Origin: a virus
Lineage: Duplodnaviria > Heunggongvirae > Uroviricota > Caudoviricetes
DNA length: 41,474 nucleotides
Virus record (IMG/VR): IMGVR_UViG_2563366877_000003
Span: 1 to 41,474 of that record
Direction: 5' to 3' (one strand)
The notes under the pieces were generated by a model. The model did no database searches, was not told where the DNA came from, and saw nothing but the letters and a program-made list of their open reading frames with translations. The translations under genes and the position numbers were made by a program. Positions 1-34,668 of the stretch are shown piece after piece (position 1 is the first letter of the stretch; every line of letters starts with the position of its first letter).

Positions 1-1173
1 TCAGGCCTTATGGTGGAAATAATCACTCAGGCGAGAAAACATGCCGCCTTCCCCGACAGATTCCAGGGTAACCAGCGGCCAGTGCGCCACCTGTTTATCA
101 CGGTCGTAAAGTTCAATTTCCCCTACCCGCTGATAGGCGCTAATTGGCGCGGTGAGTTCTTTACCATCAAGGGTATATTTGGCTTTGATATGTGGAATTT
201 CGGCTTTCGGTAGCACCATCCAGAACTCTTGTTCCGTTCCCAGGTCGATATTTTCTTTATCGCCATACCAGATGCGTTCCGTTCCGACCTTTTTCCCACG
301 GTGCAAAATTTGCACCGTAGTAAAGTTTTGTTGCCCCCAACGCAGTAATTTTCTTGCCTCTTCCTCACGACCTTTTGCACTGTCAGCCCCCATTACCACT
401 GCAATGAGACGACGCTGCCCATCTACAGCCGAAGCAATGAGATTAAACCCGGCACCAGAAGTATGACCCGTTTTCAGGCCGTCAACATTCATGGTTTTAT
501 CCCACAACAACCCGTTACGGTTTTGCTGGGTGATACCGTTCCAGGTGAGACTTTTCTCACTGTACATATGATAAAACTCGGGCTCGCCGTGGATGATAGC
601 GCGAGAAAGCACAGCTAAATCATAAGCCGAGCTATGCTGGCCAGGTGCATCCAGACCATGCACTGTTTCAAAATGCGTATCCTTGAGATGCAACTTCTCG
701 GCATAGTTGTTCATCATTTCAACAAACTGCCGTTGCCCACCGGCAATATAGTCAGCCAGTGCAACACAAGCGTCATTTCCGGAATCAACAATTAAACCAC
801 GGCTTAAATCACGTACCGATACGCGATCGCCCTCTTTCAAAAACATCAGTGAAGAACCGACAAACACCGGATTATCTTTCGCCCACGCATCGCGCCCCAC
901 GGTGACAATATCGTCTGGCGTAATGCGATGACTATCGATAGCGCGATCCACGACATAACCCGTCATCAGCTTTGTCAGGCTGGCGGGATTGCGCTGTTGA
1001 TGCTCATTACCCGCGGTGAGGATCTGTCCGGTGGTGTAATCCATCAGTACCCAGGACCCGGCATGAATCTCTGGAGGCTGAGGTGAAAAATGAATGTTTT
1101 CCGCCGCAAAACCAGACGATAAGTTAAAAACGAACAAAGAAGCAGCAATAATAAGACGGCGTTTCAACAGCAA
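1..1173 (-). CDS. dacD: D-alanyl-D-alanine carboxypeptidase, penicillin-binding protein 6b
   Basis: Full 390-aa ORF with signal-peptide-like N-terminus and the low-MW PBP motifs SxxK (SLTK), SxN (SGND) and KTG (KTGHT). Sequence recalled as E. coli DacD. Confidence 0.9.
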   Translation of the reverse strand: MLLKRRLIIAASLFVFNLSSGFAAENIHFSPQPPEIHAGSWVLMDYTTGQILTAGNEHQQRNPASLTKLMTGYVVDRAIDSHRITPDDIVTVGRDAWAKDNPVFVGSSLMFLKEGDRVSVRDLSRGLIVDSGNDACVALADYIAGGQRQFVEMMNNYAEKLHLKDTHFETVHGLDAPGQHSSAYDLAVLSRAIIHGEPEFYHMYSEKSLTWNGITQQNRNGLLWDKTMNVDGLKTGHTSGAGFNLIASAVDGQRRLIAVVMGADSAKGREEEARKLLRWGQQNFTTVQILHRGKKVGTERIWYGDKENIDLGTEQEFWMVLPKAEIPHIKAKYTLDGKELTAPISAYQRVGEIELYDRDKQVAHWPLVTLESVGEGGMFSRLSDYFHHKA

Positions 1174-1962
1174 ACCCTCAGGAGTTTCAAATAGCTGTTC
1201 TTTTTACGGAAATACTTATGAACTGGCTGGAATAAAGTGCAAGAAAATGTGACTACCCTCTCATTTTTATCTGACATGATCTGTTGCCACTCGCTGTCAA
1301 ATTGTCGCGCTAAAGCTGATTAGCACGGTGATATTTGATACTCTGGCAGACAGCAGAAATAACGGATTTAACCTAATGATGAATGACGGTAAGCAACAAT
1401 CTACCTTTTTGTTTCACGATTACGCGCAACACCCCTGAGAACCGCCATGAACAAGGGTTTCATGATTTGTAATTTTAGTTTGGTACGCAATTTGGTACAC
1501 AACACAATTTTCACTTCATCGGGTAGTCATCAAACTCACCATAACGAGCATCGTTGATGATGTATGTGATCACCACAAATATCACATCTGGACTAGTTCC
1601 GTCTTCATGCGCAGGTATCTGTTCACGCCTCCCTTTCTGCAAATCCTAAAGATGAGATTTTGGGGTTTTGGGATATCTTTTAATCCTCAGTTCTCTATCC
1701 ATTCTACAAAGCAGTAATGAACCATCACCGTGTGATAGTGAGGCATCCGCTACGTTAAGCGCAGAGAAATGATGCAGTGGTGGGCGGATTGGCTTGATGA
1801 AAAGGTGGAGGGATCCACCTTAACTATCGAATGACACAAAGACTTGCAAACCAGTGCAAAGCTTTGTTTGTCTCAGTTTTGTCTCAGCAATTACAGCAAG
1901 TATCGATCGATTGAGACTTGGATGATAGACTTCATGCCTTTGATTATTAGCTGATAGAAGAA

Positions 1963-5170: not shown

Positions 5171-6961
5171 TCAGTTATCATTAAGGCCTACATTTGCCAT
5201 GGCTGTATAAACTGTCCTTCCAGACCCTGTCTGCCCTACCACTCCGGGTACACCTACGAAAGTGTTGCCAGTTATTACCCATGCAAGGTTATCGTTGGTG
5301 TTAAAGTTTATCCCTCCAGTGCATGTATTCCATCCGCCAGTGACTTTCTGGTTACCGAAGAAATTACCATTCACAGTAACATTACGACAATATTCTGCTT
5401 TTATTGCATAACCGTTGCAACTACTGAATTGGTTATTACCCATTAATAGATTCTGCACGTCATAGAGGTACATGCATTCCTGACCGGCGAAATGGATAAC
5501 ATTGGCGTTAAAGCTAAGTCCCAAAACCTCTGTTGCACGTATTGCTGGAGTCCCTGACACTCTGCCTCCAGAAAACAGGCTGTTTGTGATAGTTCCTACC
5601 GCCACTCTGTTAAGGTCCAAGCAATAACCGTCAATATTGTCAATTACGCTATTAGTTATAAATACCGGTAATCCCCGAGAATCCGCCCCTGAATCTAAAG
5701 GTCGGTGTGTCGTTGACTTTATGCCGTAAGGTCCGTAAAACATCGAAGTGCCTACTAGTCTCAAATCGGCAACATCAGTTATATCTATAGGGGATCTGAC
5801 CATATAGCAGTCGATAAATGCTGGACCCTCGTTAATAGGAAATGCTGGTGATACACTGGCCTCGTTAATTGTGGTCATACTGTCGATTAATACGCAGCCA
5901 TTCCAAGTAACCCAGTGTAAATCTGATGCGTAAATCGGTGCCTTGTAAAAACCGCACTTATCAAATTTAAATAGACTCGCATGTTGCAGTGATATAGCCG
6001 CATTGCTGGGGGTAGAGCTGGAGTCATTACTAAAATGAATGCGCTCGAACACTGTATTTTCAGCCCAAGAAGATGCACTCCCGGTGTTGGCGAAGAACAC
6101 CGTGGCGTCCGCATTTATATTTTTGTTTCGCCAGAATGTTTTAGCGCCACCGCTGCCGATGAAATGCATAGACGGCTTGATGACGCATGGAGGTGTAAAG
6201 TAGTAGCTTCCGTACTGAAACTCTATCGATCGACCTTCATATAACTGTGCGTTAGCCAGGATAGGAGAATGATCTAAACTCTGATCTTCAGATTTGCCAC
6301 CGAACCATTCAATTATAACATGACTACCTGCGCCACTTCGTACCCAATATACAGATGGGGAAGCAGACGAAATAAATACTCCATCATCATCTGTGTAATT
6401 CCCTGATACAGCTACGAAAACACCACCACCTAACAAACCACGTCCTGTGGTGTGCTCCTTCACCATGGCCTTATCACCTACAGATGGTGCTACATCCCGT
6501 AAATTTGATATTTCGGCATATTCACCTATGAGATTCAGCCCATCTTCACTACCCAGGTTATCATAACTAACGGCACCATTAACTAAGTTTACGCCGCCCT
6601 GTGAAGACAAATCCTGTCGTAACTGATCAGGGTCATACTTCAGCACATTAGGAAAATAGAACTGCTGCGCACCGTACGTATCATAAACAGCCATCGAATG
6701 ACCTTGCACAGTTACGAACTTGGCAATCTGTCCGTTATATACAGGGTAACCAGCAGAGTTAATAATGATTGGTTGCGAAACAGGAATGTGAGAGCCGTCT
6801 TCGTTCTCTACATAAACCTGAATCTGGTTTTCAGGATTTACAGGGTCAGTGTCAATTTTACCGATATAAATCTTTCCATTAGCTACGGCTTTAAAAGAAC
6901 GAGCCATAGTGAAGAGTTGCGAAGGCATGCTGACCACAACATTTGCGGTGATATCTGACAT
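5171..6961 (-). CDS. Tailspike protein, P22 gp9-type N-terminal head-binding domain with divergent receptor-binding domain
   Basis: N-terminus [10 protein letters not shown]...[12 protein letters not shown]...DTDPVNP...VTVQGHSMA...NVLKYDPDQ matches P22 tailspike head-binding domain; remainder differs. Start set at internal ATG 6961 rather than the ORF-track start 7009. Confidence 0.85.
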
Positions 6962-7082
6962 TTCATTGCTCCAGACGAATGATATGATGCAACCATGATG
7001 TGATTGCATACCGAAATGGTACTATTGAGTATTTATCCAGTAGGTTACGATGCCATTCCACCCAACTGGTGAGGCATCAAGG

Positions 7083-7432: not shown

Positions 7433-9430
7433 CTATTCTGACAACGCATCAGACTTAGCCCCCTGCGTCAGGGCGTTAATTGCCTTTTTTGCCTGCTGCA
7501 AGGCTTTCTCAAACGCTGTTGATCCGCGTTGGGTGTTTGCCATTCGGAGCATTGCATTTCTGAATGGCTCGCTCTCATAGGCGCGAGTAAGAAGTCCGTA
7601 GCTTACCGCTGCGCCAGTTGTCGCCGGGTTCATTGCCGTCCCATACCCGATAATGAACGGGATAGTTTGCTGCCCTGTAGGTGTTGTTACTGCCGCTTTT
7701 GCAGCCTGCTGCGTGGATTGCAGGTAGTTTTTTAATCCTTTCAGGTAAGCAGCGTCCTGCCCCTTAAATGTGATGCCAGTCTGGTTTTGCAGGATGTTAA
7801 GCTGCCGAAGGAACTGGTCAGGGGATCCGCCAGATTTCTCCATCGCCTTTCCAATGATGCCATTGCGCATTTGCGCCCTGCCAACACGACCAACTGAGTT
7901 ATACAGCGTCTTAATTTCAGATTTGTTCTTGCTGAATAGCATGTTGTTGACAACTTCCGGCGTCAGGTCGCCTTTCATGAGAACATTCTTCAGCCTGGTA
8001 TTCTTTAGTTTCGCCGCTTCGTCAGCGTAGACGGCATTGGCCTGCTGATATTTACGGAGAGTATCATTGCCAAGATTCTGACCAATGGCACCATTTATAT
8101 CGTCGGTCATCGCCTTGTAAACGCGCTGTATGGCGGCATCAGAACGGTTTGGTAACACTGGTCGCTCACCCTTCACGTCCATTCTGAACTGGCTGCGCAG
8201 ATCGCTTAATTGCTTCAAATCCAGATTTACCGGGCCATCAGGACCAGCATTGCGAACAAGCTCATCACGATATGACTGAAGTTTTGAAATCGTCTCGTTA
8301 TCAGCAACCTTACCAAGCTTCTGCAGGTTAGATATCTCAGTATCAATCTGCTGAATTGCGCGTGCAGGCTGAATGTTTACTCCTGCCATAGCATTCTGAA
8401 CCTGCTCCAGTCGATTACCGGCGGCACGACGAATTCCTGATGTTTTCGCTTTGAGGCTGTCAATAACAACCGCTGGATCATACTCACCGAATTTATCGGC
8501 AAATCTCTGCACCAACTGGCTTCTCGCTTCCTGTTGCGTTGCTCTCATTCCGCTTGTGCCAGCCAGAGGGATATTTTCCGCTGTCGTCTGCGCCATTTTC
8601 CCGACGCGGGAAGTCGGTTGTAACAGGTCTGTGGTGTGCAGAGGCACGCCTTCACGCTCTGCAAACCTGATAGCCTGTTGCGCTTCGGGTGCGATAGCAC
8701 CACGAACGCCACGATAAGCAGCACCTAATCCACGTCCGGCAGCGTTAATAGCACCGCCAGTAAGTACACCAACGCCTAAATCGGTGGCGAGTGCTTCCGC
8801 ATCATCTTTCGCACTATTTGCAGCAAGTGACCCGACTGCGTTTTCAGCGAGAAGGCGAGTTGCACCCTGAGCGATTCTACCAGCGAGTGTTGGTGCCTGT
8901 GTTGCCGCTCTCTCAATGCCAGCAGGAGTGAGGTAAGGCAATGCCTCAGCAAATACCCTGCCCTCTGTAGTTTGTGGAGTCAGCGCGCCTTGCTGAAGGC
9001 CAAAGTCCCGCTCTAATCCCTGCGTTGTTACTCGTGGCGCTGGTTGATATGTCCCATCGCCAATGCCGAGTTTACCGCCAGCCCAAGCCGCCGCGCTTGT
9101 TACAGCATCGGCAACTGATGCAGGTATGTTTGCCACGTTCACGCCAGCCTGCACCAGTCCGCGACCAGTCTCTTTTACTGCTTCACCAAGATCAGACATA
9201 AATCCGCTTTGCTGTGGTTGTTGCTGTGCTACTGGTTGCTGTGTCTCCACTGGCTGCACAGATGGCAATGGATAGGCTGCATAGAAAGCTTGCTTAGCCT
9301 GCTCTGCATTTTCTCCGGCTTGCGGGGCCACGACTTCATTGAAGTATTGCTCCTGAGCCTGCGCTTTTTGTTCTGGTGCTAACGCCTGATACTGTGGAGA
9401 GGCGATAACATCTTTCCATGCTTTAGCCAT
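7433..9430 (-). CDS. Ejection (injection) protein, P22 gp16-like
   Basis: 665 aa, last gene of the 7-20-16 ejection-protein order downstream of gp20. Confidence 0.75.
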   Translation of the reverse strand: MAKAWKDVIASPQYQALAPEQKAQAQEQYFNEVVAPQAGENAEQAKQAFYAAYPLPSVQPVETQQPVAQQQPQQSGFMSDLGEAVKETGRGLVQAGVNVANIPASVADAVTSAAAWAGGKLGIGDGTYQPAPRVTTQGLERDFGLQQGALTPQTTEGRVFAEALPYLTPAGIERAATQAPTLAGRIAQGATRLLAENAVGSLAANSAKDDAEALATDLGVGVLTGGAINAAGRGLGAAYRGVRGAIAPEAQQAIRFAEREGVPLHTTDLLQPTSRVGKMAQTTAENIPLAGTSGMRATQQEARSQLVQRFADKFGEYDPAVVIDSLKAKTSGIRRAAGNRLEQVQNAMAGVNIQPARAIQQIDTEISNLQKLGKVADNETISKLQSYRDELVRNAGPDGPVNLDLKQLSDLRSQFRMDVKGERPVLPNRSDAAIQRVYKAMTDDINGAIGQNLGNDTLRKYQQANAVYADEAAKLKNTRLKNVLMKGDLTPEVVNNMLFSKNKSEIKTLYNSVGRVGRAQMRNGIIGKAMEKSGGSPDQFLRQLNILQNQTGITFKGQDAAYLKGLKNYLQSTQQAAKAAVTTPTGQQTIPFIIGYGTAMNPATTGAAVSYGLLTRAYESEPFRNAMLRMANTQRGSTAFEKALQQAKKAINALTQGAKSDALSE

Positions 9431-10818
9431 TAATCACCCCATAGTGAAGAAAAGTTACTGCTGGCTGCTGGCTGTGATACCTGTGCAGGTTGAGATTGCT
9501 GCCGCTGAGATTTACCAACATTAACGTTATATTGTTGGTTGTAATTGTTGGTGTATTCCTGAATCTCACGAATCGACTGCTGCATAGCCTCCGGGCTTGA
9601 ATAGTCAACCTGCGGCATCCCCTGAAAATACATCTTCGCTTCTGCAACGGTGTTAATACCACTGGCACCCATGTCCCTTGCTGCCGCCACACCCTGATTC
9701 TGCATTCTGCCCTGAATACGTTGTGCTGAGTTATATAACTGGCGCTGCTCTTTTCCTGTTAATCGGCTGCGAACATCAGCACCAATTGCTGGATTACCCG
9801 CACCGCCTGTCATTCCTGTCATGAAATCGAGAGCAGAAGCGTCTGCATTTGCGATCGCGTCGATATCCTTCTTCATGGCATAGTTTTGTGCTGATGCAGA
9901 CGATGTTGCAGGCGCTGCGATTGAACTGGCAGGAACGCGAACCATATTCCCCTCGTTGTCGATGCCTTCGTAGAACGCATTAGCCCCAGCGCCGTGAAGC
10001 TTCCCGCCTACCGTTACAGTTCTGCCATCTGATAACTGAACTGTACGCTCATCATTCCCAGCGGTTCCTCTTGTTGACGCTCGCTGCATTGCCAAATCCT
10101 GCCCGCGTCGCGCAGTAGAAGCAGATAAGTCCTGCCCGCGCATCGTGATGTTCTGGCCTCGTGCTGTTAGCGCCTCGCCAGCCTGATTGCTGCGGATTGT
10201 CTCTGCAAGTTTTCCGCGATCAATCTCACGACCAGCCATCTTGTCCTGAACATTGAAGTAATCAATCGGACCAAGAGCAGCCATTCCAAGGTGATCAACA
10301 AACTCACCAAATCCTGAAGGGTTCTGCTGATACATCTGAGCAACGTTATTAGGGTCAACACCGACGCGAGTCAGTTCCTTGGCGTTGTTTTGCAGCCATG
10401 ATTGCATTGCTTCTGGAGACGATGACGCAAGGCGTGCGCCAGCCGCTAAGGTGCCGATAGAATTACGCTGATCTTCATCAATGAATCCCATGCCTTTACG
10501 AACGGATTCAATCTGGTCTGGATATTGAATAGCCAACTGACGCAAAGCTCCGCGATCACCAGACGCATAAGCATTAGCGTACGCCTGCTGAAATTCTTTC
10601 TGCCGCTGAGCCTGCTTTTTCTGCTGAAACACCCCTGCAATACCTGAAAGACCTTGCAAAGCAGTCAGCCCAACATTGTTAGCGCCTGAACGCTCAATAT
10701 CATTGTTCTGCCTGATAAGCTGAAGCGTATTGCCGATGTCATTTACGCTCGGAGCGTTTGAGTTGACGCCGCCGATACCAGCTAACAATCCGCCATTTGA
10801 TCCTTGCCAAGTAGCCAT
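9430..10818 (-). CDS. Ejection protein, P22 gp20-like
   Basis: 462 aa, N-terminus [17 protein letters not shown], between gp7 and gp16 homologs. Confidence 0.8.
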
Positions 10819-10827
10819 GATTACCCC

Positions 10828-11520
10828 TTAAAACAACGAGCCAAGCAATCCGATACCAGCACCAATGCCAGCGCCCCAAGGTGTTGATGTTCCCAAAAGG
10901 CTGGCAAGACCTGCACCGGCAATCGCACCAGACGTTCCGCCACTAATTGCTGTCTGAAGACTTGATGGTTTGTTGGCATTAGCAGCGGCAAGAGCTGCAC
11001 TTTGCTGTGCAATGCTGCTCATGTTGTTGGCGTATGTCTGCCCAGCATTTGCCTGACCTTGCAGCGCACCAAGCCCAACGTTTGCCAGATTGTTGTAATT
11101 GCTCATCTGGTTTGATAACCACGACTGACCGAGAGTCGGAGCAATCGTAGCCAGTTGATTGCTTGTGGCTGTCGAACCAAGTCCGCCAGTCGCCTCCGCA
11201 GTAGCAAGACTCTGGTAACGAGCCTGACCTGCAAGGTCTTTATACTGCTGAGAGTTGTAATACTGATTAAGTGCCTGCCCCTGACCTTCTAAACTGGAAA
11301 GGTTCTGAAGCTGGTTAACATACTGCTCCGCAAGAGGCGTGAACGGAGCAAGGTTTTTCATGATCGTCTGCCACTGCTGATTTTGCAGGTCTGCGGCATA
11401 CTTCTGAGCTTCTGCTGCATACTTTGCGCTTTTATCAGAGCTGCCACCTTTCCCGCCTTTTTCAGGGCAATAAGGTTCCTCGCCACGCAGTTTTCTGCCT
11501 AGCTTAAATGCATATAACAT
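10828..11520 (-). CDS. Ejection protein, P22 gp7-like
   Basis: 230 aa, MLYAF.LGRKLRGEEPY...GIGAGIGLLGSLF matches recalled P22 gp7. Confidence 0.8.
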   Translation of the reverse strand: MLYAFKLGRKLRGEEPYCPEKGGKGGSSDKSAKYAAEAQKYAADLQNQQWQTIMKNLAPFTPLAEQYVNQLQNLSSLEGQGQALNQYYNSQQYKDLAGQARYQSLATAEATGGLGSTATSNQLATIAPTLGQSWLSNQMSNYNNLANVGLGALQGQANAGQTYANNMSSIAQQSAALAAANANKPSSLQTAISGGTSGAIAGAGLASLLGTSTPWGAGIGAGIGLLGSLF

Positions 11521-11698
11521 GGCTATCTCCTGTGATTCAGGAAGTCGATTAGTTCTTCGCGTGTGGCGCTGTAAAACGTCACGTCATCCACGCCTTTGAA
11601 GTATTTCTTGATGGTTCCTACACGCTTAAGGCCAATCATTGCGCAGTACATCTGCCTGAACCGCCCCGGGTTTCCTGGAGAGTGTTTTATCTGTGAAC

Positions 11699-12589
11699 TC
11701 AGGCTGCCAGATCATCGTTTCCGATGGAAGCATAATAAGCTTTTTCTGCTTCTGCCGGAGGAGTATGGCCCAGCCTTTCCAGCAATCGTCGATTGTTATA
11801 CCAGTCCACCCACGTGAGTGTGGCCAGTTCCACTTCTGCACGGTTTTTCCAGCTCTTACGGTGTATTACCTCCGCTTTGTAAAGACCATTGATGCTCTCC
11901 GCCATCGCGTTGTCATACGAGTCGCCTGTACTTCCTGTTGATGCCAGTAATCCGGCTTCCTTAAGCCGCTGTGTGTAGGCCAGCGATACATACTGAGAAC
12001 CTTTATCACTGTGATGGACCGTGCCGGACGGTCGACGGGCCCATAACGCCTGCTCCAGTGCATCCAGCACGAATGTCGTTTCCATGGACGATGAGACCCG
12101 CCACCCCACGATGTATCCGGCAAACACATCAATGATGAACGCCACATAGACGAAGCCCCGCCATGTGCTGACGTAAGTAAAATCAGCCACCCACAGCTGG
12201 TCAGGTCGTTCTGCCACGAACTGACGGTTTACGCGGTCGCCTGCGGCAACGGCTTTCCGGCTGATGGTCGTACGGACCTTTTTACCCCGGAGAACACCGG
12301 CAAGTCCCATAACCGCCATGAGACGTGCCACAGTGCATCTGGCCACTCTGATACCTTCCCGTAACAACTGACGCCAGACTTTACGCACACCGTATACCTT
12401 GTGATTTTCATCGTATACGCGCTGTATCTCTTTCTTCAGCCAGTCATCGCGCTGCGCACGGGCACTGCGTTTATCCGGATGATGTCGCTGTTGCTGACAG
12501 TGGTAATACGTTGACGGGGCAATATGCAGTTCGCTGCATAGCGGTCCGACCCCGTACTGCTCACGCAGCTTATCCAGCAGTGGCATCAT
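11699..12589 (-). CDS. IS3-family transposase OrfB (DDE catalytic domain)
   Basis: 296-aa ORF overlapping orfA in the -1 frame; DDE-type integrase core. Confidence 0.9.
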
Positions 12590-12912
12590 TTTTTCCAGAG
12601 GCGGTCGAACTCCGCCTTCGCAAAATAAGCGGAAGCCTGGCGAAGGATATCGTTACTGCGGCGCAGTTCACGATTTTCACGTTCCAGCTCTTTCAGACGC
12701 TGACGTTCAGCGGTGGTGAGCCCTCCATCACCGCCCCCGGTATCCCGCTCATGCTGGCGAACCCAGACACGCAGAGTCTCCGGCGTACAGCCAATCTTTG
12801 GAGCAATGGAACAAATTGTCGCCCATTGTGAGTCATATTCGCTCTGACTTTCCAGAACCATACGGACTGCCCGTTGACGGACTTCGGGGGAAAAACGAGT
12901 ATTTTTAGTCAT
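12586..12912 (-). CDS. IS3-family transposase OrfA (HTH DNA-binding)
   Basis: 108-aa [22 protein letters not shown]..., ends in A-rich slippery run GGAAAAAATGA overlapping the orfB start. Confidence 0.9.
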
Positions 12913-13290
12913 CCTGTTTACCTCTTTCTCAGGAAGTTTAGTCTCCAGGATTCCCGGGGCGGTTCAGCCCGTGGCGGAATTTGCGTGCAGCGAACGATGT
13001 GACGCACTGAACGGTGGTGTTAGTCAGAATGTATCGCCAGAACGCCAGCCCGATTTCCTTGCTGAATCCGCGAATCTCTGGCAGGTACATGGCGTGGCAA
13101 TCGAATGTAAGCGGCTGAATCTCCTGATAGTAAACAATGCCGCCGAACTGCCCGTGCACGTTCACCTCAAAGTAACGGCAATCAGGTTTGTAGTCGTATC
13201 CATCACCGTTGTTGCTCCCGGCAATAATGTCAGGGTGATTTCCGACTGCTTCGATCAGGTCGATGTTTCGCGTTGGTTTGAACTGAATCA

Positions 13291-14139
13291 TTACTGCTCC
13301 GCGATTATCTTGATGGTTGTGGCAGTAAACGCCGCACCATTTGACTGGATGGTTAACGTACTGCCATTTGCGGCAAGAAAGCCGTCTTTATCCACGCTGA
13401 AAAACGTAGCTAACAGGATGTTATCGGTCGTTGTCGCCGAGTTGCGACTGCTTACCAGTGTGTCAGGAACAGAGCCGGAAAAGGTTAGCTGCATTGACCT
13501 GTTGGCGGTTCCGCTGGGCCACGTCCCGACGATCGACAGCTTGAAGAACAAGGTTTTGTTCTCGTTGAACACAACCATCTTGTTGTTAACAGTGTCGAAG
13601 AATGGTGCCAACGTCCCGGATGACGGCGTGAGCGTTTTCAGCAGGCTAACAAGGTTGGTCGGCGCTGTCGGGATGGTTACTGATACGCCAGAGTAAACAA
13701 CCTCTGACTTCTTGCGAGTAGTGGCATACTCCAGAGCATTGATGCGCGTTTCATGGTCTGAAACCTGCGATTCCAGCGACTGAACTCTGGTATCAAGCGA
13801 CGCAATATCGCTTTCATTCTGAGCTATTCGTGTTTCATGTTCCTGAAGAGTTGATTCTGCCTGGCTGATTCGATCCTCATGATTAACAAGCGTTGCTTCC
13901 GCAGCAGAAATTCGCTGCTCATGGTCAGCGAGAATCACATCCTGCTCATCGTTCCTGACCTGTGCATCATAAGCGCCCTGTCCGGCCTCGTTGGCCTTGT
14001 TAGCCACGTTACCAACATCAGTGCCCTGTGCGATAACGTAAAGCAGATACGACTGCGAGAAGATATTGCGTGGAAGGACTGATGTGTCGAGCCGTGTAGC
14101 CTGAATGATTACCGGCACATTGAGATTAGAATCCGCCAT
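13291..14139 (-). CDS. Tail needle protein, P22 gp26-like with divergent C-terminal domain
   Basis: N-terminus [43 protein letters not shown]...GQGAYDAQV matches P22 gp26; C-terminal region differs, suggesting a knob-type needle. Confidence 0.8.
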
Positions 14140-15557
14140 TACTCAATCCTTATCTGAGCACCAGACAGAGTGACAGGTGACTTCGTGATAACGCGCAATT
14201 TGAAGCCAATGTTTTTCCTGATGCGCCCAACTCGCTTCCACAAAACGCGTTTGTCGTAAACGAACGGTTCATTCTGCTCAATCATCTGCTCACGACCATA
14301 ATTTATGCCGTCAGTGGTTGCAGAGAGGAACAGGCGGTCGGCGTACTGCGCAACTCCAGTTGACGATTCAACTTCAAGGTCGAAAACTCTGGCGTTATCC
14401 GCTTTGAACAACGGAGTAAACAGCAGGTGTTCCTGTTGCTTGTCGTACTGGCTGCTGATGTCGAATTGCAGTTTCCCGGTAACAGATTCCAGCTTATCGC
14501 CGCACGTTATCTGATTGCCTTCGTAAATGAAGTCGATAGCGCGGTACACATCGTCATACAGGCCTGTTTTCAGTACACACCATTGCGGACCATTGGCGCT
14601 TGAAGATGCGTCGTACACGAGGACGTGACGCGTAAGATGGATAATCAGCAGTTCATGCGCATCAAATCGCAGCGATTCCATCACACCATCAGCCAGTTCA
14701 TCAGCAGTGTAGGAGCGTAGTATTTTCTCAATGCTCGCGCTGGCGATTGGTGATACCTGACCGGAGCCGATGATATACACAGACGGCGCACCTGTTGCCG
14801 GATTGCTGATGAACGCATACGAATCAGCAAACGGCGTTTTGCAGTAAGTTCCGGCAATACCTTTCTGCACCATCAGCGATGGCTGTGCGACATACAAAGC
14901 GGCACCAATGGTGGTTGCACCAGTCAGGGAGAAATATTCAATCGTCGATGAACCAAAGCAGACGATGAAGTCTCGCCATGTTCCGATACCGATGATGCCG
15001 TCCGGCTGAGACTCGGCACGATATTGTGCGCTGTAGCGGTCAGGATGCGATTCGTCTTCAAGGTCAGTGATAAACCATGAATCGGTGCCGTCTTTTGACC
15101 ACGCATAACGCCCACGTAATCGCGTAATGTCGCGGACTGAGCCTAACTCATACTGCGTGAATCCGCTGTCTGTAGGCCAGTTTGAGACGGTTTTAACCGT
15201 GCCATCATAGCGATATTCGACCAGTTGACCATTAACGCCTACTGCCTGTGATGTCCTACCGTGTGCCATTGATACGCGACCACTTCCGGCAACATCACCG
15301 ACCTCGCTTTCGCCCTTATACAGCTTGCCGCCACACACGCGATATACAGCATTCTGCGCCATGTTGTACTCGACTCCGCGCGATACACCGTTCACATCAG
15401 AACGTTTGGCAATGCCCGGGAATGAGCGAAGATATCCGCTGCTGTTAAGGATTTCTTTGGGTGTAGCCAACATATTCACTGGCAGATAGTCGATATAGTC
15501 GGCGTTTCGAAAGTCTTTGCCGACACCTTTCATAAGCGGAAGTTGCTGAATCGGCAT
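14139..15557 (-). CDS. Tail hub protein, P22 gp10-like
   Basis: 472 aa, same length as P22 gp10, between gp4 and gp26 homologs. Confidence 0.8.
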
Positions 15558-23615: not shown

Positions 23616-23903
23616 CTACTTCTTCAGAAATGATTCGATGAATTCACGTCGAGGATGACGATAGTTCAGAATATCTTCTGGCATCCTCATAAAGCGGTTG
23701 TTGCCGTCTTTGGCAGTAACAAAACAGCTGTGAACTCCGCAGACATCCGTTTTGATTGTGTCGCTATACTCAAAAAGCAACTGAGCCATCTTCTCTTGCC
23801 ATTCTGGCGGCATAGCCTCCATGAATACTCGCGGCATCACGCAGAACGACGCATGCGTCAGGCCAAACCACAATTGCAGGTCTTTACGATATTCTTCATC
23901 CAT
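23616..23903 (-). CDS. Hypothetical protein
   Basis: 95-aa ORF downstream of Rz in the late operon; no recognisable motif. Confidence 0.45.
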   Translation of the reverse strand: MDEEYRKDLQLWFGLTHASFCVMPRVFMEAMPPEWQEKMAQLLFEYSDTIKTDVCGVHSCFVTAKDGNNRFMRMPEDILNYRHPRREFIESFLKK

Positions 23904-25062: not shown

Positions 25063-25369
25063 CTTCTACTCCGGCTTTTTTAGCAGCGAAGCGTTTGATA
25101 AGCGAACCAATCGAGTCAGTGCCGATATAGCCGATGAACACGCTCGTTATATAAGCGAGATTGCTACTTAGTCCGGCGAAGTCGAGAAGGTCACGAATGA
25201 ACCAGGCGATAATGGCGCACATCGTTGCGTCGATTACTGTTTTTGTAAACGCACCGCCATTATATCTGCCGCGAAGGTACGCCATTGCAAACGCAAGGAT
25301 TGCCCCGATGCCTTGTTCCTTTGCCGCGAGAATGGCGGCTAACAGGTCATGTTTTTCTGGCATCTTCAT
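25046..25369 (-). CDS. S: Holin S (class I, dual start)
   Basis: 107 aa [22 protein letters not shown]..., lambda S with dual-start MKM; upstream CCCCTTCTGGGGG hairpin as in lambda. Confidence 0.95.
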
Positions 25370-26170
25370 GTCTTACCCCCAGAAGGGGATCTGTTCAAAT
25401 TAGGAATTATGGATATGGTCGCTTGAACAAATCCGGGTTACGGTTGATTTGTAACGGGCTTGTTCGTGACCGCATTCATGAGCAAATCAGGCGTGGATTG
25501 CGCCAACAATACATGCCGCTCATATCACGAAGCCCAGCCATTGATGCTGGGTTTTCTTTTTTAAAGCGCACTAGACAACCGTATCCACAGAGTGTCAGCA
25601 ATGAGTTGGTTAGGTCTGGTTCTTGGTGGAAGTACGCTTTAAAAAATGGGCTGAGGGTTGTAGCCCAAAATACTGAGGGAATGGTAAGGATGAACAACGG
25701 TTTTGCTCTGGGTGGATTTGGCTGTGGTGGCCGGCGCTGATCTCCGGCTTGTATACAGGCACCTTGTTCTTCCGAAGCTCTCCTGCGCGCATCAGCCTGC
25801 GCATTCACCACACCGGAAAGAGCACTCAGTTGTATCGGCCAGTTGTGCCACTAAGAAATGCTTTCGCAGACCGTTAAGCTCTTTGCCAGTTCTTTAATGC
25901 TCTTACCTGTTGTGTGCCCATTATTAATCACACCGGGCCAGTGCGCCGAATTTGTTTACAAGGAGTCGGAAGACCTTGCTGACTTACAGGCTATTACGCC
26001 GCCATCAGAACAACATCATCGTTTGCATTTATCTTTGTGGTCAGTTTCTAAAAAACCGCAAAGTCGCCAACTCTGACGAAAACTATCGTTGTGCTGCCAC
26101 AACGATAAGAGCACTCGGTGCATTTAAGCCAAGCCCCATAAGGGAGAATGCTCTTACCTGTTACACAGAT

Positions 26171-26229
26171 ATAAAAAATCCCGAAACCGTTATGCAGGCT
26201 CTAACTATTACCTGCGAACTGTTTCGGGA
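26171..26229 (-). terminator. Late terminator tR' (end of the short pR' transcript)
   Basis: Minus strand CCCGAAAC...GTTTCGGG hairpin followed by TTTTTTAT; matches recalled lambda tR'. Confidence 0.8.
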
Positions 26230-26362
26230 TTGCATTTTACAGACCTCTCAGCCTGCGATGGTTGGAGTTCCAGACGATGCGTCGAAGTGACCAACTAGGC
26301 GGAATCGGTAGTAAGCGCCGCCTCTTTTTATCTCACTACCACAACGAGCGAATTAACCCATC

Positions 26363-26400
26363 GTTGGGTCAAATTTACCCAACTTTATTCAAAAAGTCAA
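26363..26400 (-). promoter_or_regulatory. Late promoter pR' with overlapping Q-utilisation (qut) site
   Basis: Minus strand TTGACT (26400..26395), 17-bp spacer, TAAATT (26377..26372); sequence matches lambda pR'. Confidence 0.8.
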
Positions 26401-26442
26401 TATTATGCCGTTAACATGTTGCCATCCGTGGCAATTATGCTG

Positions 26443-27066
26443 CTAACGTGTGACCGCATTCAAAATGTTGTCTGCGATTGACTCTTCCTTGTGGCATTGC
26501 ACCACCAGAGCGTCATACAGCGGCTTAACAGTGCGTGACCAGGTGGGTTGGGTAAGGTTTGGGATTAGCATCGTTACAGCGCGATATGCGGCGCTTGCTG
26601 GCATCCTTGAATAGCCGACACCTTTGCATCTTCCGCATTCTTTCTCAACAACTCTCCCCCACTGCTCTGTTTTTGCTATATCAACCGCACGGCCTGTACC
26701 GTGACAATCTCTGCATCTTGCGCCAGGCGTCGCGGCACTACGGCAATAATCCGCATAAGCGAATGTTGCGAGCACTTGCAGTACCTTTGCCTTAGTATTT
26801 CCTTCTAGCTTTGCCACACCACGGTATTTCCCCGATACCTTGTGTGCAAATTGCATCAGATAGTTGATAGCCTTTTGTTTGTCGTTCTGGCTGAGTTCGT
26901 GCTTACCACAGAATGCAGCCATTCCGAATCCGGCTTGTGATTGCGCCATCCCCATAGCAGCCATCACATCAGTACCGGAAAGAGAGTCAGAAGCCGTGGC
27001 CCGTGGTGAGTCACTCATCATCGGGCTTTTTGGCGAATGAAATTTAGCCACGCTTTCGAGTCTCAT
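26443..27066 (-). CDS. Q: Late antiterminator Q
   Basis: 207 aa, matches recalled lambda Q including the CRDCHGTGR...CGRCKGVG zinc-binding region. Confidence 0.95.
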
Positions 27067-32244: not shown

Positions 32245-33062
32245 GCAATCCCCCTGTCTGCAAACTTCCCTTCCCGAACTCCCGTTAACGAGTCTTCCCT
32301 CAGCAGGTAATCAAAATCAGCCGTCCAGCCCGTGTCGTTGTCTCCGAAGTAAAACGGCTTGGCCTGATGCACAAACGCCCTGACATACGCTCTGAAACCG
32401 TCCACATTTGGCGTTTTCAGTTGCGGGATGATTTTCTTCAGGCGGCGTTTGCGTTTCTCGTTGACCGAAACAGCGTGTGGCAGTCTGTCACCGACTTCGG
32501 TGTTGTAGGCGTTCAGGAAGGATTCGTAGTCGATTCGTTCTGCCTTGCGACGTTCAGGTTTAACCTGCCCATCGCCACCCCCGTTAGGGGGTAAGGGGGT
32601 ATTTGTATTTATTGTCTTTTGTATATTGTCTTTTGTGTTTAGCTGACTTGGCTTATACCCATTAGCCGACTTGGCTAATGTTTTATTAGCTGTTTTAGCT
32701 AATGTTAAGCTGTCCTGGCTAATCCACTGAGAAACCACCTTGTTCACTCCGATTTTCACGCCATCAGCAATGAGGAATTTACGCTCAATAAGCTGGCGCT
32801 TGGCAGCGCAAACATGAGTGTGATGAATACCTGTCATGGCTGCTATCTGCGTGTTTGTGAGTCGATCCATCGGCTTATTGAATCCGTATGTCTTGCGCAT
32901 GATAGCGAGCATCACCTTCATCTGCCGGACGGTTAAATCAGCCATCAGCAGACTGTCGGTAATCTCGTTAGCAACGCGCATGAAACCATCTTCGGTATCT
33001 GCCACGCGATGCTCCACGACCTCCAGTTGAGGCCTGTAATCAGCTAACTTAACGACGCCCAT
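32241..33062 (-). CDS. Replication initiator, lambda O / P22 gp18-like
   Basis: 273 aa; N-terminal region resembles lambda O; gene contains iterons. Confidence 0.85.
32601..32720. repeat. Replication origin: AT-rich tract plus four 13-bp iterons inside the initiator gene
   Basis: Iterons AGCTGACTTGGCT (32641), AGCCGACTTGGCT (32664), AGCTGTTTTAGCT (32688), AGCTGTCCTGGCT (32708) at 20-24 bp spacing, next to ATTGTCTTTTGT x2. Confidence 0.7.
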
Positions 33063-33210
33063 GTTTCACTCCTGCTTTGGCTAGTCTGTAAACACCAACA
33101 AGGCGCTCTGCGAACGCCCTGTTATTTGCTGCGGCTACCACTAATCCCTCAGGTGAATCAGGGTGTCGAATCTCTTCTTTTTCCTGGTATTTCTTACGAC
33201 GTTTTGTCAT
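33049..33210 (-). CDS. Small basic hypothetical ORF between cII-like and initiator genes
   Basis: 53 codons (MTKRRKKYQEKEEIRH...), AGGAG 5 nt upstream of ATG 33210, end overlaps initiator start. Below the ORF-track size cutoff. Confidence 0.3.
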   Translation of the reverse strand: MTKRRKKYQEKEEIRHPDSPEGLVVAAANNRAFAERLVGVYRLAKAGVKHGRR

Positions 33211-33244
33211 AATGACTCCTGTGGATTGATCCAGTCTTTCTACA

Positions 33245-33526
33245 TCAGGCCTCGAAGAATTCGCCGTTCTTCGGGGCTTTTTCTTTTGTCAGGTAATTGG
33301 CAAGCCGCTTAGTCAGCTCAGCCATTTCATCGTCTTCGATTCCGTATTCCAGAACAGCCAGCATCATGCTTACCTGCGAGAAGAAACCATTCTTCCATCG
33401 GCTTACCTGATATTCAGGAATCCCCATTGCTCGAGCGAATGTCTTCTGCCCCATCAGTGCCAGTTTGTTCAGCAAGGCTGACTCGATGCGAGCCGCTTTC
33501 TTGCTTTTAGTTGCAATAGTACCCAT
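33245..33526 (-). CDS. cII: CII-like transcriptional activator
   Basis: 93 aa; ARIESALLNKLALMG...YQVSRWKNGF...MMLAVLEYGIEDDEMAEL aligns with lambda CII. Confidence 0.75.
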   Translation of the reverse strand: MGTIATKSKKAARIESALLNKLALMGQKTFARAMGIPEYQVSRWKNGFFSQVSMMLAVLEYGIEDDEMAELTKRLANYLTKEKAPKNGEFFEA

Positions 33527-33642
33527 AGATAATTTCCTTAATGATTAGATAGAGTTGGCTTCGCAAAGAAACGCAAAACCATAGAGATTTGTTTCTGGTA
33601 ATGCCCTTTTTCAGGGCGGGGATGTGTAAGAGCGTTAATAAC

Positions 33643-33873
33643 TTAAGCGGCCATTAATTCAGGCCAGATGCTTTCCCAATCAACCGGATGAAGGTCTTTG
33701 CGAGTCACTTCACCATTGCTGAACTTCTCAATCAGAACACAAAGTGCTGCGCCCAATTCATGATTACGGCTAAGTGCTTTCCTCAAATAGCCGATAGAAG
33801 TTCCGCACTTGGTGGCAAATTCTCTCTGCTCTTCCAGTGAAAGGGAGTTCAGATACAAGCGGAGTTCTTCCAT
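33643..33873 (-). CDS. cro: Cro-like HTH regulator
   Basis: 76-aa ORF divergent from cI across the operator region, HTH-like segment FATKCGTSIGYLRKALS; assignment mainly positional. Confidence 0.55.
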   Translation of the reverse strand: MEELRLYLNSLSLEEQREFATKCGTSIGYLRKALSRNHELGAALCVLIEKFSNGEVTRKDLHPVDWESIWPELMAA

Positions 33874-33907
33874 TTGCTATCTCCTTCCCGTTGTTGAATA
33901 AGATGAG

Positions 33908-33963
33908 TTTACCTGTAGGTAAAAAGCAAATCAATACCCATAGGTTATTTACCGGCAGGTAAT
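33908..33963. promoter_or_regulatory. Right operator region (OR) between divergent cro and cI
   Basis: Palindromes TTTACCTGTAGGTAAA (33908..33923) and TTTACCGGCAGGTAAT (33948..33963), with a weaker site between. Confidence 0.6.
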
Positions 33964-33981
33964 CAAAGATAGAATTAAATC

Positions 33982-34668
33982 ATGGATAAATACGAACAAA
34001 GACGACTAAGGCTGATAGAGATAAGAGACCGATTCTGTAATGGAAAGGCCTCAGAGTTGGCTCGTCGAATAGAAAGGGAACCATCATACGTTTCCAGAAT
34101 GCTGTATCCGGAAGGAAAAAGCGGAAAAAAACGCATTGCTGACGATATGATGGAACTAATTGAAAAATCTTTTAATCTCCCACGCGGATGGATGGACATG
34201 CTTGCAGATGGTAAAGCTGGAGCTACAGACCATCTTGAGTTTGCGGGTAACGTTCGTGCGGGTTTTGTTCCGGTAATTGGTGAAGCCGTTTTGGGAGTTG
34301 ATGGCTCAGTGGATATGATTGAATTCAGATCCGGTTGGTTAAGCATCTACAGCGGCGATAAAGATGCTTACGGTCTGAAGGTTAAGGGTGACAGCATGTG
34401 GCCAAGGATTCAGTCAGGAGAATATGTTGTTATTGAACCAAATACGCCAGTACATCCAGGTGATGAAGTCTTTGTAAGGACCAAAGACGGTCACAACATG
34501 ATAAAGATCATGAACAAAACAAGAGACGGTGATTATCAGTTTAGTAGCATAAACAGTGATCACCGCCCAATCACTCTTCCTGTTGAAGAAGTTGATAAAA
34601 TGCATTTTGTTTCAGCTATTGTGAAACACACCAGGTACGTAGACCAGGACGATCTGCCAAAAGTTTGA
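33982..34668 (+). CDS. cI: CI-type prophage repressor (HTH plus S24 LexA-like autopeptidase domain)
   Basis: 228 aa; C-terminal S24 domain with GDSMWP serine and downstream lysine; N-terminal HTH; divergent from cro. Confidence 0.9.
   Translation: MDKYEQRRLRLIEIRDRFCNGKASELARRIEREPSYVSRMLYPEGKSGKKRIADDMMELIEKSFNLPRGWMDMLADGKAGATDHLEFAGNVRAGFVPVIGEAVLGVDGSVDMIEFRSGWLSIYSGDKDAYGLKVKGDSMWPRIQSGEYVVIEPNTPVHPGDEVFVRTKDGHNMIKIMNKTRDGDYQFSSINSDHRPITLPVEEVDKMHFVSAIVKHTRYVDQDDLPKV

Follow-up and report, generated by a model that had tools for sequence, protein, structure and literature searches.

The stretch of DNA analyzed here (the window) comprises the 41,474 nucleotides (nt) of IMG/VR record IMGVR_UViG_2563366877_000003 and is 100% identical to scaffold KB732530.1 of the draft assembly GCA_000351165.1. 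It carries a P22/Sf6-like prophage of Escherichia coli, and in the late operon of that prophage, between a gp26-type tail needle gene and the gene for the ejection protein gp7, the homolog of P22 gene 14 is interrupted by a complete insertion sequence (IS). An original prediction, made from the letters of the sequence alone, had proposed that an IS3-family, IS629-like element of 1310 bp lies here between GCC repeats at 11654..11656 and 12967..12969 and that it splits the virion gene gp14. The coordinates, the length, and the duplication were all reproduced by our analysis, and the family assignment was sharpened to IS629 proper. The parts of the locus, in the direction of late transcription, are as follows.

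12938..13291, minus strand: 5' part of gene 14, encoding residues 1-108 followed by LNRPGNPGD and a stop codon from the IS end (truncated product of 117 amino acids [aa])
12967..12969: target-site duplication copy 2 (GCC), present as a single GCC in the empty sites described below
12942..12966, minus strand: left inverted repeat of IS629, upstream of orfA, with the outermost TG on the minus strand (inverted-repeat pair I1, 26 nt, 92% complementary)
12586..12912, minus strand: IS629 orfA, 108 aa, helix-turn-helix DNA-binding part of the transposase (Pfam HTH_Tnp_1, 49 bits; cut-off, 24.1)
12515..12631, minus strand: ALIL frameshift-stimulating pseudoknot (Rfam RF01497, 120.2 bits against a gathering score of 50; E value 3.3e-32; full model, positions 1-117)
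11699..12589, minus strand: IS629 orfB, 296 aa, DDE (rve) catalytic part of the transposase (Pfam rve, 97 bits; HTH_21, 66 bits; rve_3, 45 bits)
11657..11681, minus strand: right inverted repeat of IS629, downstream of orfB, from the end comparison (inverted-repeat pair I1)
11654..11656: target-site duplication copy 1 (GCC), likewise present as a single GCC in the empty sites
11523..11656, minus strand: 3' part of gene 14, codons 109-151 and the stop codon TAG, cut off from the start codon

IS629 belongs to the IS3 group of the IS3 family, comes from Shigella and E. coli, and has the isoforms IS1203 and IS3411; it is among the most abundant IS elements in E. coli, often lying within prophages, and, like other members of its family, it transposes by the copy-out/paste-in route. 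The copy in the window occupies 11657..12966 on the minus strand and is complete at exactly 1310 bp. Both ends read TGAACCGCCCCGGG in inverted orientation (TGAACC...GGTTCA, giving TG...CA termini), and an end-to-end comparison of the terminal inverted repeat found 14/14 matches and then 23 among the first 25 bases, in keeping with the size and ends of IS3-family elements (about 1.2 to 1.55 kb, with imperfect inverted repeats and 5'-TG...CA-3' termini). The inverted repeat can formally be extended by one base (C...G), which would turn the element into one of 1312 bp with a 1-bp duplication; the canonical reading (1310 bp, TG...CA termini, and a 3-bp duplication) is the one that fits the IS3 family.

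The coding content has the two-open reading frame (ORF) organization of that family: orfB is read in the -1 frame with respect to orfA, the end of which it overlaps. The ALIL pseudoknot spans an A6 run in this overlap, an arrangement corresponding to the programmed -1 frameshift signal of IS3-family elements (a slippery A run plus downstream structure), and a fused 404-aa OrfAB frameshift product is annotated by NCBI at the orfA/orfB locus (L003). Under the ISfinder rule, isoforms share at least 95% nucleotide identity over their full length with the reference IS. Measured against copies that their depositors annotated as "insertion sequence:IS3 family IS629" (LC567824.1 and LC567828.1), the element is 99.5% identical over 1310/1310 bp, well within the 95% full-length limit for the name. 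It is also 100% identical to AF017626.1 and to many E. coli copies, and 96.1% identical to a copy labeled IS1203 by RefSeq, IS1203 being an isoform of IS629 (PMC3271280). Given its 99.5% identity to annotated IS629 and its 100% identity to other E. coli copies, we assign the element to IS629 proper. By all sequence criteria, the copy is complete and able to move.

The flanks of the element carry a perfect GCC on both sides, as expected from the short direct duplication (3 to 4 bp) of IS3-family insertions; a target duplication of 3 to 4 bp with no strict target sequence has been described for IS629 itself (PMC3271280). A 3-bp flanking repeat would arise by chance alone in 1/64 of cases, a figure that is irrelevant here because empty sites match the rebuilt junction base for base. 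Three such sites (L001, L005, and L007) carry a single GCC and align without a gap, with L005 and L007 being identical to the rebuilt junction at 60/60 nt and L001 at 58/60 nt over the same stretch and throughout the junction itself. Moreover, 415 complete E. coli genomes contain an unbroken match to a rebuilt stretch of 1056 nt (identity, up to 98.6%), and in these the gene of the DUF2824 family that corresponds to gene 14 is annotated as intact.

Deletion of 11657..12969 (the IS and one GCC copy) produces a 456-nt minus-strand ORF (13291..12970 joined to 11656..11523) that encodes 151 aa followed by a stop codon, which is the uninterrupted gp14 frame that had been foreseen. The rebuilt protein matches its uninterrupted homologs end to end: across its 151 residues, Sf6 gene 10 and the gene 14 homologs of HK620, IME10, and CUS-3 are 98 to 99% identical to it, and P22 gp14 is also 151 aa long (PMC4837284, table). 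It scores 180.3 bits against Pfam PF11039 (DUF2824; cut-off, 25) over residues 5-147 of 151 and 261.8 bits against PHROG 651 ("head morphogenesis"). The gene order on the minus strand (gp10, needle, gene 14, gp7, gp20, and gp16) places it at the position of gene 14 in P22-type phages. The identification of the split gene as gp14 is thus borne out, and one detail of the prediction needs correction: the rebuilt frame was said to end one codon before the gp7 start, whereas only 2 nt (CC) separate the gp14 stop codon TAG (11525..11523) from the gp7 ATG at 11520. The spacing in P22 is likewise 2 nt (PMC4837284).

The expectation that an intact duplication reflects a simple insertion is likewise upheld by the empty sites. 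On the sequences compared, the event is a simple insertion across codons 108/109 with a 3-bp GCC duplication and nothing else rearranged. Taken by itself, the claim of a clean insertion that knocks out gene 14 is one that we hold to be practically certain.

Both gene fragments remain closely similar to their counterparts, with tblastn identities of 98 to 99% for residues 1-108 (to Sf6 gene 10 and CUS-3 gp14) and of 91 to 93% for residues 106-151 (to the homologs). To place the break in the protein fold, we used an AlphaFold model made on a 93%-identical natural gp14 homolog with a 27-sequence alignment (predicted local distance difference test score, 91.5), in which gp14 is confidently predicted to adopt the alpha/beta fold of the GNAT type (acyl-CoA N-acyltransferase superfamily). 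After strand 4 of the model lies the segment P71-E-I-R74-G75-F-S-K-E-I-G81, of which R74 and G81 are at least 90% conserved; this loop resembles, without matching, the canonical coenzyme A pyrophosphate-binding motif R/Q-x-x-G-x-G/A. The IS cuts the protein after G108. Of the 16 columns that are invariant in the family, 8 (G116, G121, I123, K125, F127, G129, D132, and V133) fall in residues 109-151, a segment predicted to make up the bulk of helix 4 together with the final two strands and the C-terminal helix. Because the insertion removes this conserved C-terminal third of the predicted GNAT-type fold, the 117-aa product is very unlikely to fold or work, and gp14 is almost certainly nonfunctional in this prophage.

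A sequence search of the solved structures recovered no relative of gp14, and the weak matches that it returned (designed "Cake" repeat proteins and antibody chains) were rejected as spurious. From the predicted fold, we tentatively suggest, as a conjecture that we would not expect to hold in most outcomes, that gp14 may be a GNAT-type acyltransferase that modifies a virion or ejection protein or another target late in infection, in which case the IS629 allele would be a natural knock-out of an enzyme. Such an activity on particle proteins would explain how a protein labeled for head assembly or virion stabilization affects particle quality; gp14 itself is presumably absent from virions. Clean excision of IS3-family elements has been described where an IS-excision enhancer is present (PMC9397093), and by analogy the IS629 allele could revert in this way.

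For the consequences of the insertion, we propose the following course of events. An active IS629 copy transposed into gene 14 of a P22/Sf6-like prophage resident in the E. coli chromosome, and the gene now yields the 117-aa product (residues 1-108 plus nine IS-encoded residues), with the almost certain loss of gp14 activity. Late transcripts under the control of a Q-type antiterminator would read through IS629 into genes 7, 20, and 16, as is to be expected from antiterminated late transcription and from the co-orientation of the IS629 transposase genes with the late operon. The prophage would still build DNA-filled particles, and these, lacking gp14 activity, would probably be poorly infectious or unstable, by analogy with the labels given to the gene 14 homologs. 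The Sf6 GenBank record calls the homolog a "putative virion stabilization protein," and other records call it "head assembly" or "virion stability factor."

The distribution of gp14 speaks to its importance. Matches to gp14 occur in 126 phage records, as compared with 128 records whose gp10 is at least 80% identical, and almost all are from phages of Salmonella, Escherichia, and Shigella. They are at least 90% identical in 123 of the 126 records, whereas the neighboring needle, gp20, and gp16 vary widely. This near-universality and low variation imply strong purifying selection and a real role in fitness, and we infer an important part for gp14 in making the particles of this phage group fully infectious or stable. 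The statement of the original prediction that the prophage cannot make viable virions if gp14 is needed for infectivity is accordingly a reasonable conditional, not a conclusion. The account as a whole, from the insertion through to the phenotype of the particles, seems to us the better-favored one, at odds somewhat above even.

Several points weigh against it. No report of a gene 14 mutant phenotype was found in the accessible literature on gene 14, gp14, and DUF2824 (almost all text on "gp14" concerns T7, T4, or SP6), so that the effect of gp14 loss on the particle is a deduction. Read-through of the IS is assumed from the biology of lambda Q and P22 gp23, and the minus strand of IS629 contains one weak terminator-like site (12199..12184). 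The regulation, excision, and replication genes of the prophage were compared by length and family only. Finally, the 69 phage records with a gp10 of less than 65% identity gave no gp14 match, which suggests that the basic P22-type particle may not need gp14; gp14 may be accessory, and the prophage may still give plaques.

The strongest rival takes up this last point and holds that the insertion is nearly neutral, with gp14 a dispensable accessory protein and the IS-bearing prophage still making infectious virions. It draws further on plaque-forming Sf6, which carries the IS3-family element IS911 in gene 54 (the ninG homolog), and on the wording of the Sf6 record, which names a putative stabilization protein and not an essential structural one. 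The size of the genome is also no obstacle: the headful of P22-type phages is about 43 kb, and the prophage with its IS measures at most about 41.6 kb (from the dacD end to the sbcB start) and should fit. The conservation described above is set against this reading, since a protein retained in 126 records, as opposed to 128 with a close gp10, and so much less variable than its neighbors shows a pattern indicative of strong purifying selection. So is the rarity of the allele, which occurs in 0 of 5426 complete E. coli genomes, as opposed to 415 with the uninterrupted stretch. We regard near-neutrality as unlikely, with perhaps one chance in a few of being right.

A second rival locates the main damage downstream, with the IS lowering transcription or translation of genes 7, 20, and 16 and of the tailspike gene so that the particles would lack ejection proteins. 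Within the operon, IS629 does immediately precede gp7, gp20, and gp16, the terminator-like hairpin noted above falls within it, and no promoter-like site is found between it and gp7; an outward IS promoter driving gp7 was considered and rejected, there being no promoter-like site in 10800..14200. Late transcription in lambdoid phages is, however, made resistant to terminators by a Q-type antiterminator (lambda Q or P22 gp23), and a gene for such a protein (Pfam Antiterm, L011) is present in the prophage. The terminator-like sites in the region number 5 against 3.0 (standard deviation, 1.5) in shuffled sequence, which is not clearly above expectation. Furthermore, an AGGAG ribosome-binding site belonging to gp7 itself is preserved in the tail of gene 14, 7 nt ahead of the gp7 ATG (junction sequence, CACAGGAGATAGCCATG), and gp7 should therefore be independent of gene 14 translation. 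Given antiterminated late transcription and this ribosome-binding site, polarity on the essential genes 7, 20, and 16 is possible and probably limited, and that it should be the principal lesion strikes us as improbable. The original prediction took into account neither such polarity nor reversion through excision of the IS.

The weakest rival, that a repeated IS copy was misplaced into the prophage during assembly, starts from the draft status of the source scaffold, the multicopy nature of IS629 in E. coli (a median of 4 places per genome having it), and the fact that no complete E. coli genome shares the junction, but it has next to no chance of being correct, as a perfect 3-bp duplication of a sequence that is single in the empty sites is the signature of transposition and not of misjoining and the right junction occurs independently in a second assembly. 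That second assembly is GCA_000326825.1, a contig of which runs from the prophage 205 nt into IS629 and ends there. The exact 117-aa fusion product is called both in it and in GCA_000351165.1, and this product arises only from the present insertion, as its nine C-terminal residues are encoded by the end of the IS; the allele thus occurs in at least one draft besides the source. Neither IS junction was found in any of the 5426 complete genomes, in which the two top matches are different insertions. We take the insertion to be real, recent, and confined to a narrow lineage, its recency following from the perfect duplication and the identity of the IS to other copies.

Outside gene 14, the virion genes are full length in comparison with those of functional phages, so that the predicted intactness of the rest of the morphogenetic module holds. 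The genes compared are the following.

13291..14139, minus strand: tail needle with an Sf6-type knob (role of P22 gp26), 282 aa, intact; Pfam Phage_tail_NK, 386 bits; 97.5% identical to Sf6 gene 9 over 282/282 aa
10828..11520, minus strand: ejection protein gp7, 230 aa, intact; Pfam P22_gp7, 445 bits; 99.6% identical to IME10 gp7 over its full length
Portal: 722 aa, 98.3% identical to IME10
Scaffold: 303 aa, 99.3% identical to IME10
Coat: 431 aa, 98.8% identical to IME10
gp10: 472 aa, 98.7% identical to IME10 and Sf6
gp16: 665 aa, 98.2% identical to Sf6
TerL: 486 aa, 90.9% identical over 486/486 aa to Salmonella phages

In addition, gp4 is full length with 97 to 99% identity to functional phage homologs, and the stop codon of the needle gene overlaps the gene 14 ATG. 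For gp20 and the tailspike, the matches to PHROG families extend over the full length. With respect to individual phages, gp20 (9430..10818) is 88.5% identical to Sf6 gene 12 over the first ~250 residues only, with the remainder giving no alignment and residues 372-447 matching a PHROG labeled "tail fiber protein," and the tailspike (5171..7009) has only its N-terminal head-binding domain in common with Sf6. These partial matches have the appearance of, and we take them as, typical mosaic joints.

The prophage is flanked by the host genes dacD (window positions 1..1173) and sbcB, and its integrase gene lies just beyond the right-hand edge of the window. In left-to-right order, the window contains gtrABC, the tailspike gene, mnt/arc, genes 16, 20, and 7, the IS in gene 14, and the genes for the needle, gp10, gp4, coat, scaffold, and portal; further rightwards come the terminase and lysis genes, the Q-type antiterminator gene, the nin region, the replication genes, the cII/cro/cI region, N, and the early-left genes. 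The ORF at 1..1173 was entertained as a phage integrase and discarded, being host dacD (Peptidase_S11). The integrase present, a 392-aa protein of the P4 type, is encoded at the opposite end beside sbcB. In the spacer between dacD and gtrA, a little way ahead of gtrA, 51 nt on the plus strand (1757..1807) encode the 17 C-terminal residues of an Sf6-type integrase with 100% identity, which looks like the fossil of a module exchange. A repeat search for an attachment core between the dacD-gtrA and int-sbcB spacers returned only a 13-mer that lies inside sbcB and is probably due to chance.

Among the other features, a 95-aa ORF between the terminase and lysis genes (23616..23903, minus strand) matches only positions 139-230 of the 233-position PHROG 3527 and may represent the C-terminal end of an accessory gene that was truncated. 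Truncation of the Q gene, which IME10 annotates at 269 aa, was rejected, as the gene encodes 207 aa with the Antiterm domain both here and in three related prophages. The ~1.07-kb segment between the Q-type antiterminator and holin genes (25369..26443) holds no called gene and no tRNA; at the equivalent place, Sf6 has a late promoter, a qut site, a terminator, and two tRNA genes.

For annotation, these results mean that the prophage has one defined lesion in its virion module and that gene 14 is to be recorded as a split pseudogene. The strain could serve as a natural gene 14 null in work on the function of this small conserved protein, for which a GNAT acyltransferase is now a concrete hypothesis. 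Neither phage nor transposon biology has an open question that hinges on the insertion itself; the predicted GNAT fold is the only lead of some wider value, since it replaces a vague label by an enzymatic hypothesis that can be tested.

When set beside the IS629 known from Shigella and E. coli, the element has the same 1310 bp, TG...CA inverted repeats, 108-aa orfA, 296-aa orfB in the -1 frame, ALIL pseudoknot, and 3-bp duplication. Nothing notable distinguishes it, and it is one more copy, at a site absent from the 5426 complete E. coli genomes. IS629 insertions have been reported in lambdoid and Shiga toxin (Stx) prophages of E. coli O157:H7 and other Shiga toxin-producing E. coli (Rump et al. 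2011, PMC3271280), and 176 phage or prophage records carry IS629. The present case differs from the Stx-prophage insertions in that the host is a P22/Sf6-like podovirus prophage and the interrupted gene, gene 14, belongs to the virion module. In Shigella phage Sf6 (L014), IS911 at 32876..34124, annotated by the depositors, sits in a gene of the nin region and the phage still plaques, from which it follows that P22-like phages can package and propagate an IS when the interrupted gene is dispensable; here, by contrast, the insertion affects a conserved late-operon gene upstream of essential ejection genes.

Closer parallels come from E. coli prophages with IS629/IS1203 in the same part of the operon. 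In strain EC21Z-014 (L001, 2941..4250), the element splits gp7 in a block that otherwise looks intact; in strain 504239 (L016, 5001..6310), it lies in gene 20; and in the avian pathogenic E. coli (APEC) strain E12053 (L002), it is found at the edges of a prophage remnant. The 504239 and APEC E12053 insertions belong to visibly decayed remnants with partial genes and cut host neighbors, whereas the prophage analyzed here is otherwise complete. As an observation apart, the 14-7-20-16 block of E. coli P22-like prophages has been struck repeatedly by independent IS629/IS1203 insertions.

With regard to the interrupted gene, P22 gene 14 and Sf6 gene 10 (DUF2824, PHROG 651) have the same length and position as the rebuilt gene, which is 98 to 99% identical to the E. 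coli and Shigella homologs; what sets the present copy apart is its interruption. The terms "head assembly" and "virion stabilization" attached to these homologs are annotation labels. Genes similar to those for DUF2824 and DNA-transfer proteins have also been described in EcCIMP1, a phage-inducible chromosomal island helped by the P22-like phage Kapi1 (PMC11773190), and satellites may copy the DUF2824/DNA-transfer part of the late operon of their helper. Against this background, the IS629 insertion in gene 14 is an ordinary step of prophage decay and a new instance of a well-known process, adding one more case of IS629 eroding prophages, in a P22-like podovirus rather than in an Stx phage.

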